A model generated the notes under the pieces. That model saw only the letters and a program-made list of their open reading frames with translations, was not told the origin of the DNA and did not search any database. Below are positions 6,405-61,754 of a stretch of 64,000 nucleotides of DNA, in pieces; position 1 is the stretch's first letter; every line of letters begins with the position of its first letter. A program made the translations under genes and the position numbers. Where the stretch lies: the NCBI GenBank assembly GCA_044232865.1, contig JBIILC010000001.1:11652-75651 (forward strand), in the 5' to 3' direction. The DNA comes from Opitutales bacterium. GTDB taxonomy: Bacteria; Verrucomicrobiota; Verrucomicrobiia; Opitutales; UBA953.

Positions 6405-7910
6405 ATGAACTCCCTGCTACGAACTCTCACCATCCTCGCTCTGGCGGCAGTGCCTTACCTGTCGTCCGCGCAGAACGCACCCGCCCCAGCGGCTGAACCC
6501 GCCAAAGCCGAAGCGGCGAAAGCGGCACCCGCTGCTCCCGCGCTTGACCAGCGCGTGGCCGACCTTGAAGCCTACGTCAATAACACCGGCCCCAAGGCTG
6601 GCGACGACAAGGTCGCGGCCGGTCCCATCGCCGCTTCCGCCGGCCCTGGTCACAACGCCTTCATCATGATCTGCGCCGCCCTGGTGCTCTTCATGACGTT
6701 GCCTGGCCTCTTCCTCTTCTACGGTGGCTTGGTCCGCTCGAAGAATATCCTCTCCGTCGCCGCCCAGTGCTTCGGCTTGGCGGGGATGGTCGCGATTCTC
6801 TGGTGGGCCGTGGGTTACTCCCTGGTCTTCGGTAAGAGCTTCGACGGCACCTTCCTCGGCAAGATTTTCGGTGGCAGTGAATTCTTCTTCCTGAACGGCG
6901 TCGGCGCCGCCCCGAACGGAGACTACGCCTACTGGATCTCGCAGAACGTCTTCTCGATGTTCCAGATGATGTTCGCGATCATCACCCCGGCCCTCATAGT
7001 CGGCGCCATCGCCGAACGCATGAAGTTCTCCGCGGTCCTGCTCTTCATGTTCGGCTGGATGTTCCTCGTCTACTTCCCGATGGCCCACCACATCTGGGGC
7101 ATCACCGGTGAAATGAACGGCGTCTGGAACGCCAAGGCTTCGATCAAGGCGATCGACTTCGCAGGCGGCACCGTAGTTCACATGACCTCTGGTTGGTCCG
7201 CGCTCCTGCTCTGCATCATCCTCGGACCCCGCATCGGTTTCGGCAAGAAGGCCATGACGCCCCATAGCATGGTGCTCTGTGCCGTCGGTACCGGTATGCT
7301 CTGGGTCGGCTGGTACGGTTTCAACGCTGGCTCGGCCCTCTCCGCGGACGGCGTCGGTGCCCAGGCCTTCATGACCACCACGCTCGCCGCCGGGGTTGCC
7401 GCCTTCACCTGGGGCGCCCTCGAATGGATCCTCCGCAAGCACGCCAGCATCCTCGGTCTCTGCTCGGGCGCCGTCGCTGGTCTCGTCGTGATCACCCCGG
7501 CTGCGGGCTTCGTCACCGCCAGCTCCGCGGTCCTGATCGGTGTCCTCGCCGGGGTGGTGCCCTTCGTGGCCGTGGTCTACATGAAGTCCAAGCTCGGCTA
7601 TGACGACGCCCTCGACACCTTCGGCGTCCACGCCGTCGGCGGTACCCTCGGCGCCATCCTGACCGGCATCTACGCCACGGCCGACGTCAACGGCAACTTG
7701 AACACCAACCTCAAGGACATCGTCGGCAAGACCCTCCTGACCGAACAGTTCAAGGCAATCGGCATCACCCTGGTCATCTCCCTGGTCGCCACTGCGATCC
7801 TCGCCTACCTAATCAAGGCAGTGATTGGCCTCCGCCCGACCGAAGAAGAAGAGGCCCGCGGCCTCGATATCTCGGACCACGGCGAAGAAGGTTACAGCCA
7901 CAACTCCTAA
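6405..7910 (+). CDS. amt: ammonium transporter (Amt family), copy 2, with signal peptide and Ala/Pro-rich N-terminal extension
   Basis: MNSLLRTLTILALAAVPYLSSAQ signal, about 60-aa Ala/Pro-rich linker, then an Amt core collinear with copy 1. Both copies end GLDISDHGEEGY-x-HN. Confidence 0.9.
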   Translation: MNSLLRTLTILALAAVPYLSSAQNAPAPAAEPAKAEAAKAAPAAPALDQRVADLEAYVNNTGPKAGDDKVAAGPIAASAGPGHNAFIMICAALVLFMTLPGLFLFYGGLVRSKNILSVAAQCFGLAGMVAILWWAVGYSLVFGKSFDGTFLGKIFGGSEFFFLNGVGAAPNGDYAYWISQNVFSMFQMMFAIITPALIVGAIAERMKFSAVLLFMFGWMFLVYFPMAHHIWGITGEMNGVWNAKASIKAIDFAGGTVVHMTSGWSALLLCIILGPRIGFGKKAMTPHSMVLCAVGTGMLWVGWYGFNAGSALSADGVGAQAFMTTTLAAGVAAFTWGALEWILRKHASILGLCSGAVAGLVVITPAAGFVTASSAVLIGVLAGVVPFVAVVYMKSKLGYDDALDTFGVHAVGGTLGAILTGIYATADVNGNLNTNLKDIVGKTLLTEQFKAIGITLVISLVATAILAYLIKAVIGLRPTEEEEARGLDISDHGEEGYSHNS

Positions 7911-16554: not shown

Positions 16555-17070
16555 TTAGCGGCGCGCGAGGTCCGAAGGCGTGCCCCAGAGGAAGCTATGC
16601 TTCGAGGCGAGGAACTTACCCTTGGAGTCGACCACGGATACGCGCCAAGCGATCGGGCGCCACCTAGCCTCGCCAGACTGCTTACCGGTGAGGCCGATCA
16701 CGTATTCGCCGAACGGGAAGCCCGGCTTCAGGTTGACCGCAAAATCATAACGCTCAGGCGGCGTGTTTTCCTTACGCACCACTTCAAGGACGAGGCGACC
16801 GTCGGCCGGCGGCACGACGTCGAGCTTCACGAAGAAATAGTAACCCGGACGGGCATCCTCTTCCGTGCGGAAGACCACGTCGTCCCCATGGTGCTCCTTG
16901 GCATAGAATGCTTCCGAGGCGCGGGCCACATCGGCTTCGCTCCGGCGACGTTCGTTGACATAGGCGATGCCGGGCACCTCATCCGAGGACGCCACGGGGG
17001 TGTCGCAACCCGTGAGGAGCAGCGCAGCGAGCGCGGCCCACGCAGAGGCCTGGCTCACCGCTCGCCTCAC
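16555..17070 (-). CDS. hypothetical lipoprotein
   Basis: Lipobox AALLLTGC after a GTG start. No recognisable domain. Confidence 0.5.
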   Translation of the reverse strand: MRRAVSQASAWAALAALLLTGCDTPVASSDEVPGIAYVNERRRSEADVARASEAFYAKEHHGDDVVFRTEEDARPGYYFFVKLDVVPPADGRLVLEVVRKENTPPERYDFAVNLKPGFPFGEYVIGLTGKQSGEARWRPIAWRVSVVDSKGKFLASKHSFLWGTPSDLARR

Positions 17071-17186
17071 TTCTTGGCCTTCTTCTTGCTCGCGGCGACG
17101 CGGGCAACCTTGACGCGAGCCTTCTTGCGTTCGAGGTAGGCGCGGCGACGGCGACGCTTGATGACTTTATTGCTCTGTTGGCCCAT
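17067..17186 (-). CDS. candidate 39-aa highly basic small protein (absent from the ORF track)
   Basis: MGQQSNKVIKRRRRRAYLERKKARVKVARVAASKKKAKK. GGGAGGA lies 10 nt upstream of the ATG. Its TGA overlaps the GTG start of the lipoprotein gene (GTGA). GC-rich third positions. Confidence 0.35.
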   Translation of the reverse strand: MGQQSNKVIKRRRRRAYLERKKARVKVARVAASKKKAKK

Positions 17187-17277: not shown

Positions 17278-17352
<75 letters not shown>

Positions 17353-43584: not shown

Positions 43585-43587
43585 AAA

Positions 43588-43616
43588 GGGCGGGGTAGAA
43601 AGTTTCTACCCCGCCC
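43588..43616 (-). terminator. strong hairpin downstream of cimA, ending 3 nt before the hydrolase ATG
   Basis: Minus strand reads gggcggggtagaaa-c-tttctaccccgccc, then ttt, then ATG 43584. Confidence 0.55.
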
Positions 43617-43645
43617 TCGAAGGCAGTCAACGCGTCAGACCGAAC

Positions 43646-45205
43646 TTAGGATAGCGCGTGGGCGTAACCGTCGACGATGGCCTGCAACGAGGCTTCGACG
43701 AGATTTTCGCTGACGCCGACCGTACCCCAGGAACCCTTGCCATCGGACGAGCGGATGACCACGCGGGTCTTGGCCGCGGTGCCGTCGGCACCACCAAGGA
43801 TGCGGACCTTGTAATCCACGAGGCTGACCTTCGCCAGTTTCGGGAAGGACTTCACGAGAGCGGAACGCAGGGCCTGATCGAGGGCGTGGACCGGTCCGTC
43901 GCCTTCGGCCACGGTGAGGGTCTCCTCACCGCCGATGCTGACGCGCACCACGGCTTCGCAATAGGCCGAGCCCTTGGCGCCGCGCGCGGTGACGTGATAG
44001 GAAGCGACCTCGAAAGGCGCGGCCTTGCTCTTGCCGATATGACGACGGAGCAGAAGAGCCAGCGACGCTTCGGCGTCCTCAAAGCTCCAGCCAACGTGCT
44101 CGAGCTTCTTCAGTTCGTCGAGCGCGGTAGCGGTGGCGGGAGAGTCGCGATCGAGGTCGATGCCGAGGGACTTCGCCTTGAGGACGATGTTGCTGCGGCC
44201 GGACTGGTCGCTGACGAGCACGCTGCGTTCATTGCCGACGACGGTCGGATCGATGTGCTCGTAGGCGGCGGAGAACTTACGGACGGCATCAACGTGCGTG
44301 CCACCCTTATGGGCGAAGGCGGCGGTGCCGACCCACGGACGGCGCGGATCGGGCGCGAGGTTGGCGACGCCGTCGACGAAGCGTGATAGACCAGCAAGGC
44401 CCTTGAGCGAGGTCGAGGAGACGCACTTCCAGCCGAACTTCAGCTGGGCGCACGGGATGACCGCGGTGAGGTCGCAATTACCGGTGCGTTCGCCGATGCC
44501 GTTGACGGTACCCTGGACATGCGAAGCGCCGGCTTCAAGCGAAGCGAGGGCGTTGGCGAGGCCGAGACCGGCGTCATCGTGCGTATGGATACCCACGGGC
44601 GTCTTCTTGAGGGCAGCGATCGCGGCGCGGGTGGCCGCGGCGACTTCGGCCGGCAGGGAGCCGCCGTTGGTGTCGCAAAGGACGATGCGGTCGGCACCGC
44701 CGGCGACGGCGGCGAGCATGGAGGCGATGGCGTAGGCCGGATCTTCCTTCCAGCCATCGATTGCGTGTTCGCAATCATAGACGACTTCGCGGCGATGGGA
44801 CTTCAAGAAAGCGATCGTGTCGCGGATCATCTCGAGATTCTCCTCGGGCGAGCAGCGGAGCACTTCGCGGACGTGGAGGGCGGAGGTCTTACCGTAGATC
44901 GTGACGACCGGGGTATCGACTTCGAGAAGACCGCGGACCTGGGCGTCTTCGGAGGCACGCACGCCCTTGCGGCGGGTCGACCCGAAGGCCGCCAGCTTGG
45001 CATGCTTGAACTTGATCTTCTTCGCGCGGGCGAAGAACTCGACGTCGCGGGGATTGGAGCCCGGCCAGCCGCCTTCGATGTAGGTCATGCCGAAGCGTTC
45101 GAGCTCAGCGGCGATGCGCAGCTTGTCATCAACGGAGAAATGAATGCCCTGCCCCTGCGAGCCGTCGCGGAGGGTGGTATCATAGATTTCGATGGAGCGT
45201 GCCAT
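43646..45205 (-). CDS. cimA: (R)-citramalate synthase (LeuA/CimA family)
   Basis: IEIYDTTLRDGSQGQGIHFSVDDKLRIAAELERFGMTYIEGGWPGSNPRDVEFF. 519 aa with a LeuA-type C-terminal regulatory domain. Pattern fits the citramalate-synthase clade. Confidence 0.8.
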   Translation of the reverse strand: MARSIEIYDTTLRDGSQGQGIHFSVDDKLRIAAELERFGMTYIEGGWPGSNPRDVEFFARAKKIKFKHAKLAAFGSTRRKGVRASEDAQVRGLLEVDTPVVTIYGKTSALHVREVLRCSPEENLEMIRDTIAFLKSHRREVVYDCEHAIDGWKEDPAYAIASMLAAVAGGADRIVLCDTNGGSLPAEVAAATRAAIAALKKTPVGIHTHDDAGLGLANALASLEAGASHVQGTVNGIGERTGNCDLTAVIPCAQLKFGWKCVSSTSLKGLAGLSRFVDGVANLAPDPRRPWVGTAAFAHKGGTHVDAVRKFSAAYEHIDPTVVGNERSVLVSDQSGRSNIVLKAKSLGIDLDRDSPATATALDELKKLEHVGWSFEDAEASLALLLRRHIGKSKAAPFEVASYHVTARGAKGSAYCEAVVRVSIGGEETLTVAEGDGPVHALDQALRSALVKSFPKLAKVSLVDYKVRILGGADGTAAKTRVVIRSSDGKGSWGTVGVSENLVEASLQAIVDGYAHALS

Positions 45206-45242
45206 GGTGGTGTGGGTGGGAAAGAGGTGTAAAGGGAGGGGG

Positions 45243-45288
45243 CCGTTCCGGGCGCCGCGGAACGGGGAGTCGCCCGTCGGGCGTTCCG
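45243..45288 (-). promoter_or_regulatory. mutually exclusive hairpins in the cimA leader (attenuator-like)
   Basis: Minus strand carries A cggaacg (45288-45282), B ccgttccg (45265-45258) and C cggaacgg (45250-45243). B can pair with A (7 bp) or with C (8 bp), but not both. Confidence 0.45.
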
Positions 45289-45298
45289 TTCAGCGGGC

Positions 45299-45388
45299 TT
45301 AGAGCCCGATGATGGTAATAATCGCCGGAATGATGGCACGACCGGCCGCGGAGCGGAGGGAGGTCGAAGACTGGGCCAGGGATTCCAT
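45299..45388 (-). CDS. candidate Ile-rich leader peptide of cimA (29 aa, absent from the ORF track)
   Basis: ATG 45388 to TAA 45299: MESLAQSSTSLRSAAGRAIIPAIITIIGL. Six Ile fall within the last 11 codons. Element A starts 11 nt after the stop. Confidence 0.45.
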   Translation of the reverse strand: MESLAQSSTSLRSAAGRAIIPAIITIIGL

Positions 45389-45477
45389 GACGAAGACCCC
45401 GACTTCAAGGGCGGAGGCATGGAGAGTCAAAGGCAAAGGAGCCTGAAGCGGGTCGATGCTCGCCAAAAGGCCAATAA

Positions 45478-46248
45478 ATGCCCATTAATCAGCCCATGCG
45501 CCGCCTCGTCGCCCTCCTCCTGCTCTTGGCGGGCGCCATCTCTTCGCCGGCCCAGTGGCAAATTTTCGCGGAGAAACTGCCCAAGCCCGGCACCTGGGCA
45601 CGCTACCAGTACGAGACGATCCGCGACGGCAAGGTCGTCTCGAAATCCGAACTGAGCCTCTCGATCCGCTCCGGCGTGGACGTCGGCGGCAAACCGCACG
45701 TCTGGTTCACCGTCGAGCCGGTCGGCTGGTTGGGCTCGCGCGAACAGGCGCCGCTGCGCCTCCTCTTGAGCGCCGACATGGATCGTGAGCGCGCCGGCCG
45801 GCTGATCGAGAACTCGCACGAGATCGTCTTCTCCAATCCCGTCAAAGGAGCTTACCACATGACCCGCGAAGACATCGCTTGGGTTTCGAAGTGGGCGAAT
45901 CTCACTTACGCCAGCGAGCTGAGCGCAGATACCCCTGCACAGGAATCGCTCTCAGCCGCTGGCAAGACTTTCGCCTGCGAGCGCATGAAGATGCTCGCGA
46001 GCACGGTGACTGATCCGCCCGTGGTCCCGAAGCAGACCATCGAGTTCAAAGGGACCGTCTGGCGTTCCGACGCGACCCCCTTCGGTGTCGTGCGTGCGGA
46101 GTGGCTCGAGAAGACCACGAAGAAAGAGCGTAACCGCGAGGAGACCCGCCGCCTGACCTTGCTGGCCAGCGGCTGGGAGACCCCTCCAGCCGAGCCGGTC
46201 GACCGCGGCAAGGATTTCTCGGTCTGGCGCCTGATCTTCGGTCGCTGA
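45478..46248 (+). CDS. hypothetical secreted protein
   Basis: Signal MRRLVALLLLLAGAISSPAQ (an alternative start is ATG 45496). No recognisable domain. Confidence 0.5.
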   Translation: MPINQPMRRLVALLLLLAGAISSPAQWQIFAEKLPKPGTWARYQYETIRDGKVVSKSELSLSIRSGVDVGGKPHVWFTVEPVGWLGSREQAPLRLLLSADMDRERAGRLIENSHEIVFSNPVKGAYHMTREDIAWVSKWANLTYASELSADTPAQESLSAAGKTFACERMKMLASTVTDPPVVPKQTIEFKGTVWRSDATPFGVVRAEWLEKTTKKERNREETRRLTLLASGWETPPAEPVDRGKDFSVWRLIFGR

Positions 46249-56573: not shown

Positions 56574-58427
56574 ATGCCCGCCTATGGGTACGCTGGAGCC
56601 ATGGGGCAATTTTCTTACAAAAACGAGGCTGTCGATCCGCACCGGAAGATTCTCTCCGAGCAGCTTGTCATGGACCTGGAGCATGTCGCTGAGACCCCCT
56701 TGCTCGCCCTCGCCAAGCAGATTCCCGGCGGCTACATCCACCGCAAACCCTTCCTGCGCGACGCCAAGTGGCTGTTCAAGAAACGCCTGGGCCACTTGGC
56801 CTTGGATGCGACTGCCATCGCCGAGCACCTTCCTTGGTACGCCGAGGCCCTGAAGTGCGAAAAGGCGAAGCTACTCGAGCACCTAGACGAACTCGCTAGC
56901 GCCATCGGCGGCCCACGCACCGCCCTGCTGTGCGTCCTCTGGAATAATAAGGCCGAACAGAAGGACGCCGCCCTGCCCGCGGACCTCCTCCCCCGCCTAC
57001 TAGCCAACGCCAAAGCGCAGGCCAACAAGCCTGAAACCAAAGCATGGAAGTCGGCCATGGCCAAGCTCGGTGGTGCGACGGAAAAGGAACCGCTCGACTC
57101 CGTCGATGCCCTTGACTCCGCCGGCAAGACCGTCCGTCGACTACTGCAGGAACTCTCCCAAGGCAAAGCCGCGCGCGAAAACGAAGGACGACAGATTCGC
57201 CGCCAGCATGCCAACGAACTCGAAGCAAAAGACGTTGAAATCCGCAAGGCCCGCGAGGATGCGGGACGTCAGGTCCAGGAAGCCGCCAAGCAGGCCGCCG
57301 CGCTCGAGGCGAACATCGTGGCCCTGAATGCCAAGCTGACGGCGGAAGAAACCGAAGTTGCCCGCCTGCGTGGCGAGCTGGATCGTGCCCGCGAACACGT
57401 GGCTAAGAGGGCCCGCGAAATCGCCGAAGAACTCCTCTCCGAGGAAATCCGTCCTTGGCTGGCCGACGCGCGTACCTTGAAGTCCGCTTCTGAAGAAGTG
57501 GCCAAGCTCCGCCAGCTCACCACGGAGACCGTCGAGAAGGTCCGCAAGGCCCAGCGCGACGCCGACCCCTTTCTCGCCAAGGAGCATGAACTCCGCCAGG
57601 CCATCCCGCAGATGGAGGAGATGCTCAAGCTGCTCCGCCGTTACCTACGCACCGCCGGGCAGGCCCTGCCGGAAGTCGTCGCCCTCGAGAAGCGCCTCAC
57701 GGAGCACATCGAGAAGGTCCGCTACGAACTCGAGAAGCGCGACCAGCCCTCCGATCCCTTCCTCGAGCGCATCTCGGCCAAGATCAACGGCGCCGATGCG
57801 CGTGAGTTGAAATCAATCGAAAGCGCCCTCCTCCTTGCCGAGGAGTCCGGCCTCGTCGACTCGCGCCACGCGGACCTTTATCGTCGCGACATCCATCGCC
57901 GCCGTTCCTACATGGCGGACCGCGCTTTCCACGAGCAGAAGCAGTCTGGGCCGCTCGCGTTACTTGAGCGGGCGGTGGCCACCGGCGAGAAGGCCCGCCT
58001 CGCTCTCGATGCCAACAACTTCGCCTGTCTTCGCCAAGATTACCTTGGCCTGCGCCTGACGGCGAAGAAGAACGCCCAAGGCGAAAGCCGCTTCATGCTC
58101 GACACCGCCGCCCGCCAGAAAGTCGTCCAACTCGCCGAGAAGCTGGCCGACGATGCGCCCGGCCTCCACGTATGGGTGAGTTTCGACGGCCAGCAGACGG
58201 CGCTCAAGACGACCAACTCGCGCGTGCGGGTTACCTTCAGCCGCGCCGGCGCCAAGGCCGATCATGACATCATGGACCTGGTCGCCAAGGACAAGACCGT
58301 GGAGGCGCCGTGGTTCGTCGTCAGCGACGACATCGAAGTACGTGACGCCACCGCCCGCGAAGGCGCCTACATCATCTACAACGACGCGCTGATCCAGCTC
58401 CTGGTCAACCGCGGCATCCGCGCGTAA
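56574..58427 (+). CDS. large coiled-coil protein with C-terminal YacP/Rae1-type NYN domain
   Basis: About 250 aa of heptad-rich E/K/R/A/L sequence. The C-terminal ~160 aa reads RLALDANNFACLRQ...LHVWVSFDGQ...VRVTFSRAGAKADHDIMDLV...WFVVSDDIEVRDATAREGAYIIYNDALIQLL, collinear with the YacP (NYN_YacP) pattern. Confidence 0.55.
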   Translation: MPAYGYAGAMGQFSYKNEAVDPHRKILSEQLVMDLEHVAETPLLALAKQIPGGYIHRKPFLRDAKWLFKKRLGHLALDATAIAEHLPWYAEALKCEKAKLLEHLDELASAIGGPRTALLCVLWNNKAEQKDAALPADLLPRLLANAKAQANKPETKAWKSAMAKLGGATEKEPLDSVDALDSAGKTVRRLLQELSQGKAARENEGRQIRRQHANELEAKDVEIRKAREDAGRQVQEAAKQAAALEANIVALNAKLTAEETEVARLRGELDRAREHVAKRAREIAEELLSEEIRPWLADARTLKSASEEVAKLRQLTTETVEKVRKAQRDADPFLAKEHELRQAIPQMEEMLKLLRRYLRTAGQALPEVVALEKRLTEHIEKVRYELEKRDQPSDPFLERISAKINGADARELKSIESALLLAEESGLVDSRHADLYRRDIHRRRSYMADRAFHEQKQSGPLALLERAVATGEKARLALDANNFACLRQDYLGLRLTAKKNAQGESRFMLDTAARQKVVQLAEKLADDAPGLHVWVSFDGQQTALKTTNSRVRVTFSRAGAKADHDIMDLVAKDKTVEAPWFVVSDDIEVRDATAREGAYIIYNDALIQLLVNRGIRA

Positions 58428-58431
58428 ACAA

Positions 58432-58457
58432 GACGGGCGCATCCTGCGATGCGCCCG
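58432..58457. terminator. hairpin between convergent genes
   Basis: acgggcgcatc-ctgc-gatgcgcccgt, an 11-bp stem. An A7 run follows on the plus strand; cttgttt follows on the minus strand. Confidence 0.5.
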
Positions 58458-58479
58458 TGAGGCAAAAAAAGGACCCGGC

Positions 58480-60292: not shown

Positions 60293-61681
60293 TTAGGCGA
60301 TGACCTTATCGACGACCTTACCGAAGTTGTCGGTGAGGCGGAAGTCGCGGCCGTTGTAGCGGAACGTGAGCTTGGTGTGGTCGAAGCCGAGGAGGCGCAG
60401 GATCGTGGCGTGCAGGTCATGCACGTCGACGCCGTCAGCAGCGACCTGGGAGCCGATTTCGTCGGTCTCGCCGTAGTGCATGCCGCCCTTGACGCCGCCG
60501 CCAGCCATCCAGCAACAGAAAGCCTTGCCGTGGTGGTCGCGACCAGAAGCTGCGTTGACGCGGCCCGCGGTGGTCGGGGTGCGGCCGAATTCTCCGCCCC
60601 AGATGATGAGAGTCTCGTCGAGGAGACCGCGCTGCTTGAGGTCGGCGATGAGGGCGGCAGCCGGGCCGTCGATGGCTTCAGCCTTACCAGCGATCGCCGT
60701 GAAGAGATTCGTGTGGTGGTCCCAACCGCCGGCATCGACTTGGACGAAGCGGACGCCGCGTTCGACGAGGCGACGGGCACAGAGGAGCTTGGCGCCGAGG
60801 TCGGACTTACCGTACATCTCGCGGGTCTTTTCGGACTCCTTGGAGATGTCGAAAGCGTCGGTCGCGGCGGTCTGCATGCGGAACGCGAGTTCGAAGGACT
60901 CGATGCGGGCCTCAAGCTGCTCGTCCTTCTGGACGGTCTGCATGTGGCGCTCGTTCAGCTGGCGGACGAGGTCGAGCTGCTTGCGCTGCGCGTCCTGCGT
61001 GGTGAATTCGCTCTGGAGGTTGGCGATGATCTTATTCGCCGGGGCACCCGGACGGAACGAGGTGCTCGCACCCTGGAAGAGGGACGGAAGGAAGGCCGAA
61101 GCGCGGGCGTCGGAGCTGCCACCGAGGGAGACGAAGCCGGGGAGATCCTGACTTTCGGTACCGAGACCGTAGAGGACCCAGGCGCCGAGGGAAGGCTTGG
61201 AGAGAATCGCCGAGCCGGTGTGCATGAGCTTGGCGGCCGGACCGTGAGCCGGGAGATCCTGGTGGAGCGAGCGGATGACGCACATCTCGTCGGCCACGCC
61301 CTGGAGCTTCGGGAAGATTTCGCTGATCTCGAGGCCGGACTTGCCGGACTTCTTGAACTCGAAGGGAGTCGGGAAGAGGACGCCGTTCATGCCGGAAGCG
61401 GACATGTCAGCGAGTTCCTTCATCTTCGGCTTCGGATCGAAAGTGTCGAGGTGCGAGGGAGCGCCGCCTGCGAAGATGTGGATGACGTGCTTCGCCTTGG
61501 CGGCGAGGGGAGCCTTGCGCGGCTTGAGATTGGCCATGACCTCGGCGTGAGCGTCGCTGACCATGTACTCGGACACCATGGTGCCGAAGGCGAGGGTGCC
61601 CATGCCGAGACCGGTCTGGCGCAGGAAGTCTCGACGGGAGTTGGCGGTCGGCACGTAATTACCGCAGTTGGAGTCTTTCAT
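60293..61681 (-). CDS. DUF1501 domain protein (sulfatase-like fold, Tat signal)
   Basis: Tat motif SRRDFLRQTGLGMGTLAFG, then IFAGGAPSHLDTFDPKP and GGEFGRTP, which are typical of DUF1501. Confidence 0.88.
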   Translation of the reverse strand: MKDSNCGNYVPTANSRRDFLRQTGLGMGTLAFGTMVSEYMVSDAHAEVMANLKPRKAPLAAKAKHVIHIFAGGAPSHLDTFDPKPKMKELADMSASGMNGVLFPTPFEFKKSGKSGLEISEIFPKLQGVADEMCVIRSLHQDLPAHGPAAKLMHTGSAILSKPSLGAWVLYGLGTESQDLPGFVSLGGSSDARASAFLPSLFQGASTSFRPGAPANKIIANLQSEFTTQDAQRKQLDLVRQLNERHMQTVQKDEQLEARIESFELAFRMQTAATDAFDISKESEKTREMYGKSDLGAKLLCARRLVERGVRFVQVDAGGWDHHTNLFTAIAGKAEAIDGPAAALIADLKQRGLLDETLIIWGGEFGRTPTTAGRVNAASGRDHHGKAFCCWMAGGGVKGGMHYGETDEIGSQVAADGVDVHDLHATILRLLGFDHTKLTFRYNGRDFRLTDNFGKVVDKVIA

Positions 61682-61754
61682 TGGGGGTATTTGGTTAGGA
61701 TTAAATATGGGGGGGGATTTTGAATATTCAAACTAGATAACGAGTGTAAGGTGA

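Follow-up and report, generated by a model that had tools for sequence, protein, structure and literature searches.

The cimA gene of an Opitutales bacterium (UBA953) appears to be controlled by a leader peptide whose translation reports on the supply of isoleucine. We analyzed a 64,000-nucleotide (nt) stretch of this genome (GCA_044232865.1, JBIILC010000001.1 positions 11,652–75,651), hereafter the window, with emphasis on its positions 45,206 to 45,388, which directly precede cimA on the minus strand. This gene encodes citramalate synthase, the first step of the pyruvate route to isoleucine. In the region preceding it, a short open reading frame (ORF) rich in Ile codons is followed by RNA segments that can form one of two mutually exclusive helices, and this arrangement is, judging from the aligned sequences of relatives, conserved across freshwater Opitutae. 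We propose that the cimA leader is a ribosome-mediated, Ile-sensing transcription attenuator, a reading to which we assign a probability of roughly 0.75. The same interpretation had been offered in a first-pass annotation of this DNA, and the in silico comparative checks described below support it, albeit with a corrected version of the segment that would form the 5′ arm of the antiterminator.

The gene under proposed control occupies positions 43646 to 45205 of the minus strand. As had been assumed, its product is a citramalate synthase, scoring 644 bits against the TIGR00977 equivalog profile (cutoff 450), and it carries a C-terminal PF08502 (LeuA_dimer) domain. A gap of 272 nt separates cimA (45205..43646) from a divergent gene starting at 45478, and the leader ORF resides inside this gap, in the same orientation as cimA, with its stop codon 93 nt away from the gene. 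The ORF is present as originally described, comprising 29 codons (MESLAQSSTSLRSAAGRAIIPAIITIIGL) plus TAA on the minus strand from 45388 to 45299 (ATG at 45388..45386, TAA at 45301..45299), and the C-terminal end of its peptide reads AIIPAIITIIGL. Our count likewise agrees that six of the last 11 codons specify Ile. These six fall within nine codons (ATC ATT CCG GCG ATT ATT ACC ATC ATC; 45334 to 45308, minus strand), the last of them 3 codons ahead of the stop. No other 11-codon stretch in any of the six frames of the 64-kb window contains at least six Ile codons, and base composition predicts only ~0.009 such occurrences. Given that Ile makes up 4.1% of the residues in the proteins of this genome, the probability of the observed stretch is ~2e-6. 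The Ile-rich leader is therefore a real feature of the sequence and not a product of chance. ATT represents only 15% of Ile codons genome-wide, yet it accounts for half of the Ile codons in the leader.

The leader ORF has no Shine–Dalgarno (SD) motif, which is no objection to it because SD-like motifs are rare in this genome. Among the 42 large ORFs in the window, only six are preceded by a permissive SD-like 4-mer, and many starts follow pyrimidine- or A-rich sequence. Farther upstream is a conserved block, CCTTTGCCTTTGACTC (45439 to 45424, minus strand), that includes a −35-like TTGACT (45430..45425), and the sequence TTGACTC is invariant in an alignment of 43 sequences. A weak −10-like TGAAGT (45407..45402) follows 17 nt after TTGACT and ends 13 nt ahead of the leader ATG. 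We regard this block as a putative leader promoter, although it was not flagged in a strict sigma-70 scan. From the position of TGAAGT, transcription would probably start a few nt 5′ of the leader ORF, which would leave a 5′ untranslated region of ~5 to 8 nt or make the transcript nearly leaderless.

To place this arrangement in an evolutionary context, species-representative genomes were scanned with the CimA protein, which yielded 80 loci. Those designated L001 to L051 plus L058 come from Opitutae/Opitutales and encode CimA proteins that are 75 to 100% identical to the query (L001, from an Opitutus sp., being 100% identical), whereas L052 to L080 come from other Verrucomicrobiota at ~63% identity. 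The matches listed in this search are all at least 62% identical, and the few named ones among them are Verrucomicrobiota, Opitutales, Verrucomicrobiales, or Limisphaerales. Three sets of sequences were used: a main alignment of 24 diverse leaders, to which the values given below refer unless stated otherwise, the wider alignment of 43 sequences, and a set of 41 distinct Opitutae leaders for counts of U-runs and composition. As the first-pass annotation had anticipated, the short ORF is retained by relatives. It is found in 44 of the 49 Opitutae cimA loci with usable upstream sequence, where it has 26 to 30 codons, is located ~90 nt ahead of cimA, and encodes a peptide that finishes with (A)IIPAIIIIG[L/R/K] directly before the stop. 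In these 44 loci, the ORF is accompanied by both the Ile run and the hairpins.

The pattern of conservation within the ORF is that of a translated sequence whose codons matter more than its product. The ATG is invariant, none of the 24 aligned leaders has lost the frame, and gaps within the ORF, in both the 24- and the 43-sequence alignments, are always 3 nt long. The start codon is further pinned in several genomes by an in-frame stop only 3 to 6 codons 5′ of the ATG. Mean column entropies at codon positions 1, 2, and 3 are 0.53, 0.42, and 0.77 in the Ile region, versus 1.0, 1.0, and 0.79 in the N-terminal half, where 3-periodicity is lacking; hence it is the Ile run rather than the exact peptide that has been maintained, again as foreseen. 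The aligned leaders use ATT 70 times, ATC 53 times, and ATA four times, the changes among them being synonymous, and each leader contains 3 to 7 Ile codons with few substitutions to Leu, Val, or Met. A run of Leu or Val codons is absent from all 24 leaders, consistent with control of a step that leads to isoleucine alone. The conservation of codon positions 1 and 2, together with the synonymous exchange of Ile codons, indicates that codons and not the peptide are conserved, as is characteristic of leader ORFs with a regulatory role.

Five Opitutales loci (L041, L044, L045, L050, and L058) lack the leader, and their upstream regions are short and unrelated to it. These loci have in common a hairpin, GCAAGCC(C)GCAUCCC(G)CUUGC, that may be a different regulatory element. 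Limisphaerales-type cimA genes (L052 to L074 and many of L083 to L160) have yet another conserved region ~90 nt upstream, the promoter-like TTTTGGGATTTGCCA..(C)GTAGAAA, as well as a hairpin such as CUCCCGCC-ACGG-CGGGG immediately before the ATG, and no Ile-rich upstream ORF is present.

The RNA that follows the Ile codons is predicted by RNAalifold, applied to the main alignment, to form three hairpins, all on the minus strand. The first, P1 (CGGGC-UCUAA-GCCCG; 45308 to 45294), has the stop codon in its loop and would serve in a manner similar to the 1:2 helix of a classical attenuator. In this hairpin, 97% of cells are paired, with one compensatory change from CG to GC and several G-U wobbles. 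The 3′ arm of P1 shares bases with the 5′ end of segment A (CCGC-U-GAACGG; 45296 to 45286), the putative 5′ arm of the antiterminator, which begins 3 nt past the stop and can form 10 base pairs (bp) with segment B. The second, inner hairpin (CGCCC-GAC-GGGCG; 45283 to 45271) is enclosed by A:B and is formed in both states; at one of its pairs, five sequences have a compensatory UA in place of CG, and covariation is seen at one further pair. The third is formed by the near-invariant, shared segment B (CCGUUC-C-GCGG, CCGUUCCGCGG; 45265 to 45255) and segment C (CGGAACGG; 45250 to 45243), which folding and alignment identify as the 3′ arm of an 8-bp hairpin with a 7-nt loop. The A:B and B:C helices are mutually exclusive, sharing nucleotides 45265 to 45258.

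Three elements had been placed in this region by the first-pass annotation: A as cggaacg (45288 to 45282, 11 nt past the stop), B as ccgttccg (45265 to 45258), and C as cggaacgg (45250 to 45243). These positions are right, and the stated complementarities are seen in the window, 7 bp for B with A and 8 bp for B with C. The proposal that A is an antiterminator arm holds insofar as an A:B alternative exists, but cggaacg is not the conserved register. Alignment columns 107 to 108 vary in other lineages, and this register is confined to the clade of the window, so we rejected cggaacg as the functional A. The accompanying idea that a ribosome at the stop codon masks cggaacg would also fail, since its position at +11 to +17 should fall outside the protected region, whereas CCGC-U-GAACGG would be covered.

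Standard base pairs are present in 98% of A:B cells and in 95% of B:C cells, and when the partners are slid by 1 to 3 columns as a control, only 25 to 48% of cells remain paired. Mean column entropy is 0.045 in segment B, compared with 1.16 in the adjoining loop and 1.20 in the spacer after C. Such near-invariance between hypervariable flanks is as predicted for a switch segment that must accommodate two partners. The calculated energies are −22.9 kcal/mol for the A:B hairpin and −12.3 kcal/mol for B:C, and the whole leader constrained to each state is isoenergetic (−35.8 versus −36.0 kcal/mol). Within the leader ORF, a candidate pause hairpin, CGACC:GGUCG, is paired in 78% of cells and exhibits no covariation. 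A look for second copies of the element or for other leader-peptide candidates revealed neither a further exact match to B in the 64-kb window nor another convincing ORF with an amino-acid run. Two copies of B with one mismatch were observed. The first (CCGTTCAGCGG; 45286..45296, plus strand) is the complement of A, and the second (CCGCTCCGCGG; 45346..45356, minus strand) overlaps leader codons 11 to 14 and could fold locally into a small hairpin, CCGC-UCC-GCGG.

These segments can be assigned roles according to the logic of the trp and his attenuators. Segment 1 would be CGGGC within the Ile-Gly-Leu codons, segment 2 would be GCCCGC-U-GAACGG (including A), segment 3 would be CCGUUC-C-GCGG (B), and segment 4 would be C. 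With an ample supply of charged tRNA-Ile, the ribosome would reach the UAA codon and mask A, such that B:C would form and expression would be off. When charged tRNA-Ile is scarce, the ribosome would stall on an Ile codon and melt P1 (1:2), leaving the whole of A free. The free A segment would then capture B to form the 10-bp helix, stacked on the inner hairpin (−22.9 kcal/mol), C would remain single-stranded, and cimA would be expressed. Toeprint and footprint studies indicate that a ribosome with a stop codon in its A site protects ~10 nt beyond that codon (~12–13 nt downstream when counted from the first A-site base). A ribosome at the leader stop would cover GCCCGCUGAA and block A, and one stalled even at the final Ile codon (A site at 45310..45308) would reach only to ~45297 and leave A free. 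The spacing is suited to masking by the ribosome, as the stop-to-A distance is 3 to 4 nt in Opitutae and the stop is located inside A in the second lineage described below. Both the Ile response and the ribosome positions are what we infer from this geometry.

A related leader was encountered outside Opitutae. This second verrucomicrobial lineage, designated group 2, includes L075, L077, and L078 from among the genome loci at 63% identity, as well as five metagenome loci (L081, L082, L086, L090, and L095) found with the CimA protein of L075. All eight leaders carry CCCCGUUCCGC..GCGGA(A/G/C/U)CGGGG between A- and U-tracts. ViennaRNA folds extend the B:C pairing to AAAACCCCGUUCCGC..GCGGAACGGGGUUUU, with energies of −25 to −38 kcal/mol, and the U-run directly adjoins the stem in all eight. 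According to these models, the group-2 B:C helix is a textbook intrinsic terminator. A simple terminator scan of one group-2 locus did not flag it, presumably because the A-tract pairs with the U-tract, but the folds reveal the terminator. When truncated before C, the group-2 RNA is predicted to fold into GC-UGA-ACG..CGUUC-C-GC, which is the register of the Opitutae A:B helix, with the UGA stop codon of the leader located within A. The element is thus older than Opitutae. Among the group-2 leader peptides, that of L075 ends with FIIGKIIICGPHRSC and that of L081 with RIIGENIIIGGASRPC, having five Ile residues each (FIIGKIII and RIIGENIII), and a pair of neighboring Ile codons occurs in the leaders of L078, L082, and L086. 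Thus, at least two consecutive Ile codons are present in five of the eight.

Several observations weigh against the attenuator reading. The remaining three group-2 leaders (L077, L090, and L095) have one Ile codon only. Among the 24 Opitutae leaders, neither A:B nor B:C exhibits compensatory covariation because the segments barely vary, and the support for these helices is conservation, not covariation. Accordingly, the expectation that the A, B, and C pairings would covary was realized only in part, with complementarity retained but compensatory changes confined to the inner hairpin and P1. Moreover, P1 is a short helix (5 bp) that shares 3 nt with A, such that A:B could form first in an untranslated leader, resulting in constitutive read-through. 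The folding energy of the whole leader is not unusual when compared with that of shuffled sequences (z = −0.93), and stability taken by itself is thus not informative for this leader. Finally, B:C is not followed by an adjacent U-tract in the window or in any of the 41 distinct Opitutae leaders, and a terminator scan of the window does not flag the B:C site. The earlier caution that the tail ccccctcccttt (45242..45231) is not a clean U-tract was therefore well founded. Ordinary terminators in the window do have adjacent U-tracts, as is observed for the genes ending at 7910, 10351, 26704, 46452, and 48342, and for the convergent pair at 58427/58479.

The conservation of A, B, and C as sequence, almost without covariation, can also be read as favoring recognition by a protein. 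In this explanation, the inverted repeat CCGTTCCG-N7-CGGAACGG, along with the half-site GAACGG, would be a DNA operator or RNA site for a regulatory protein, and the ORF would be incidental or would encode a small hydrophobic protein. Indeed, two inverted 8-bp arms that are separated by 7 nt and located between promoter and gene resemble the target of a dimeric repressor, and the B:C hairpin is not a canonical terminator. However, the segment C variants point to RNA. An A-to-G change in C, present in eight sequences, preserves pairing in the sense RNA as U-G while breaking the symmetry of the DNA. The loop ranges from 7 to at least 12 nt, being longer in L038 and L043, where C is displaced downstream. 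A change that preserves U-G pairing and a loop that tolerates insertions and deletions are better explained by pairing in the minus-strand transcript than by a DNA operator. A protein-binding site would also leave unaccounted for the group-2 helix, whose A- and U-tracts are typical of an intrinsic terminator, the fixed distance from the stop to A (3–4 nt, or the stop within A in group 2), and the enrichment of the peptide tail for Ile specifically and not for hydrophobic residues generally. We therefore consider a protein site highly improbable.

If the Opitutae leader is an attenuator, its off state would probably differ from that of group 2. In the window, the hairpin is followed at positions 45242 to 45231 by the C-rich spacer CCCCCUCCC and then by a conserved U-run, UUU, located ~9 nt past the hairpin. 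The first TTT falls 8 to 10 nt past C in 31 of the 41 Opitutae leaders and is later or absent in the remainder. The displacement of the U-run, in combination with the use of adjacent U-tracts by other genes, makes classical intrinsic termination at B:C unlikely or weak. Candidates for an extended stem or second hairpin that would reach the U-run, GGUCGCC:GGCGACC (L029 group), GGAUCGC:GCGGUCU (L036 group), and GAGC:GCUC (L034 and L040), were rejected because none is shared among these lineages.

Beyond the hairpin, a C-rich tract of 39 nt (45242 to 45204, minus strand) extends to the cimA start codon without a single G. This is the second-longest G-free run in the 64-kb window, in which only three such runs reach 25 nt, and the C/G ratio at the tract is as high as 4.75 per 78 nt. 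The distance separating C from the cimA ATG is 37 nt at the median in the 41 Opitutae leaders, and the intervening sequence averages 2.4% G and 54% C, versus 25% G in group 2. RNAalifold identifies no consensus structure in the tract. Its composition resembles that of a Rho utilization (rut) site, and it may be rut-like and/or an unstructured start region that lacks an SD motif. Our best guess for the off state is a pause stabilized by the hairpin, or else weak termination requiring Rho and/or NusG as an additional factor. A stem ~10 to 12 nt behind a U-run corresponds to the geometry of a hairpin-dependent pause. Rho-dependent termination on the C-rich tract is a hypothetical alternative output, but the switch seems to leave the tract just as accessible in one state as in the other, and how access of Rho would be gated is hard to see.

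The differences between the two lineages can be united in one evolutionary scenario, which we advance tentatively as possible but rather doubtful in its full form. An ancestral Ile attenuator with an intrinsic terminator would have been rebuilt in Opitutae, wherein the hairpin was kept as the switch, and the U-tract moved ~9 nt away and gave way to the G-free C-rich tract. The off state would then be achieved via a hairpin-stabilized pause plus Rho/NusG termination, possibly supplemented by masking of the SD-less cimA start by the Ile-proximal leader segment. If true, one leader-peptide sensor would be coupled, in this natural pair of sister lineages, to two distinct ways of terminating transcription.

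The displacement of the U-tract by ~9 nt in all 41 Opitutae leaders, when compared with its adjacent placement in group 2, would also be compatible with decay. The Opitutae element could be a relic that has lost its U-tract, in which the leader is still translated and folded but exerts no regulation, with allosteric feedback on CimA acting instead. That five Opitutales loci have no leader and that CimA keeps its PF08502 regulatory domain both accord with this idea. A relic, however, would not keep segment B (entropy 0.045), the Ile run, the reading frame, and the stop-to-A spacing while CimA diverges to 75% identity and neighboring spacers randomize. The distance from hairpin to U-run and the G-free composition are conserved as well, which argues for a changed output, not a lost one. 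There is thus very little chance, in our estimation, that the Opitutae leader is a decaying remnant.

The start region of cimA also must be considered as a possible target of the leader. The segment CGUGCCAU (45340..45333), which immediately precedes the first Ile codons, is in the window a perfect 8-bp Watson–Crick complement of the cimA start, AUGGCACG (45205..45198). This raises the prospect of translational attenuation, instead of or besides transcriptional attenuation, in which the anti-start segment masks the cimA start. Stalling at the Ile codons would place a ribosome over CGUGCCAU and free the cimA AUG, and otherwise the untranslated mRNA would be exposed to Rho via the C-rich tract. 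Across the 24 leaders, 84% of anti-start cells pair, the CGUGCC:GGCACG core is mostly retained, and the codons GGU CGU GCC are conserved, third positions included, within an otherwise variable part of the ORF. The model also accommodates the lack of a canonical terminator and the nature of its target, a cimA gene without an SD motif. Nevertheless, compensatory changes are lacking, and a change in cimA codon 2 from GCA to GCU is not matched in the leader. When compared with shuffled ORFs, the anti-start duplex is not significant in most lineages (p > 0.1), and in several the best duplex is elsewhere. The two partners could be conserved independently, given that cimA begins with Met-Ala-Arg codons, and the anti-start segment has a possible local partner in CGACC:GGUCG. 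In addition, start masking leaves the invariance of A, B, and C unexplained. We consider such a translational mechanism unlikely, and favor a transcriptional attenuator built on A, B, and C.

The proposed transcriptional attenuator resembles the well-established leader-peptide attenuators of proteobacteria, which control trp, his, leu, thr, ilvGMEDA, and ilvBN. The shared features are a short upstream ORF with regulatory codons clustered near its 3′ end, a set of 1:2, 2:3, and 3:4 helices, a stop codon placed for occlusion of segment 2, and a two-partner segment that is the most conserved. The differences are that the target is cimA, of the pyruvate/citramalate route, and not an ilv, leu, or thr operon, that the phylum is Verrucomicrobiota, and that the 3:4 helix in the lineage of the window has no adjacent U-tract. 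The cimA leader is also Ile-only, whereas the ilvGMEDA leader mixes Ile, Leu, and Val, and the thr leader mixes Thr and Ile.

Other systems share parts of this design. In tnaC and in mgtL/mgtA of Salmonella, translation of a leader peptide selects among RNA structures, and termination is Rho-dependent in a C-rich region. The cimA leader is similar in having a short ORF rich in one amino acid and a C-rich region, although a Rho dependence for cimA is purely hypothetical. Like T-box riboswitches, the cimA leader would sense tRNA charging through an antiterminator/terminator switch located before a biosynthetic gene, but it has neither a specifier loop nor a T-box sequence, and sensing would occur via the translating ribosome. 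A search of positions 44900 to 45800 against Rfam with cmscan (E ≤ 10) returned a single match, a chance-level CcsR1 hit outside the leader, and no leader, riboswitch, or T-box family.

The closest precedents based on comparative evidence are the ilvB-II (Corynebacterium), ilvB-OMG, and ilvB (Leptospira) motifs, which have been reinterpreted as upstream-ORF attenuators, high-GC hosts included, wherein an in-frame start and stop surround a peptide rich in regulatory amino acids (PMC10272879). As with ilvB-OMG and ilvB, the cimA leader is a conserved RNA motif before a branched-chain gene for which the evidence is comparative only. Unlike these motifs, which precede ilvB and encode peptides of mixed branched-chain amino acids and Thr, the cimA leader is Ile-specific and has no sequence or structural similarity to them (no cmscan match at E ≤ 10). 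A precedent for an unconventional output comes from actinobacterial attenuator candidates, among which mycobacterial cys leaders lack terminators and have a pyrimidine-rich tract proposed to be a Rho-binding site (Seliverstov et al. 2005; PMC1262725). The cimA leader likewise combines a run of regulatory codons near the stop with the lack of a canonical terminator and a pyrimidine-rich tract before the first gene. However, the cys leaders have no conserved hairpin, whereas the cimA leader has two exclusive helices and a sister lineage with a canonical terminator.

Our search of the literature on the regulation of cimA or citramalate synthase, and on leader peptides in Verrucomicrobia and Planctomycetes, found no description of such an element. 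The mechanism class itself is textbook, and what is new here is the target gene, the phylum, and the natural pairing of canonical with noncanonical outputs, each of them accessible to experiment. If the proposal is correct, leader-peptide attenuation would be extended to Verrucomicrobiota and to the citramalate (pyruvate) route to isoleucine. An Ile-only leader also would provide independent regulatory evidence for an isoleucine role of TIGR00977-type enzymes in abundant freshwater bacteria. The Opitutae and sister forms would constitute a natural experiment on the exchange of attenuator output modules, and the leader offers a defined site for studying the rules of termination or pausing in a little-studied phylum where SD motifs appear rare. 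Many database copies of TIGR00977-type enzymes still carry the name 2-isopropylmalate synthase.

Several further features of the window were recorded. Directly after the cimA stop codon is a strong hairpin, GGGCGGGGUAGAAA..UUUCUACCCCGCCC (43586..43618, minus strand; −28.8 kcal/mol), whose short U-run runs into the ATG (43584) of the next gene, which encodes an esterase/lipase-like protein with a signal peptide. Thus, cimA looks monocistronic, with a terminator that abuts the next start codon. Other branched-chain amino-acid genes, which might form a regulon with cimA, are absent among the 30 window ORFs scanned with Pfam. Between the convergent genes mentioned above, a hairpin (58428..58478) is flanked on opposite sides by an A-tract and a T-tract (GGGCGCAUCCUGCGAUGCGCCC), and thus resembles an intrinsic terminator that works in both directions. 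An AT- and C-rich sequence of 49 nt (AATATTCAAAATCCCCCCCCATATTTAATCC..; 61680..61728, minus strand) at an ORF junction (ORF ends at ~61723 on the plus strand and ~61755 on the minus strand) is longer than any other G-free run in the window. Beside the gene for tRNA-Asn (17278..17352, minus strand) is an exceptionally Lys/Arg-rich ORF of 39 codons, MGQQSNKVIKRRRRRAYLERKKARVKVARVAASKKKAKK (17067..17186, minus strand), that may encode a real small basic protein.

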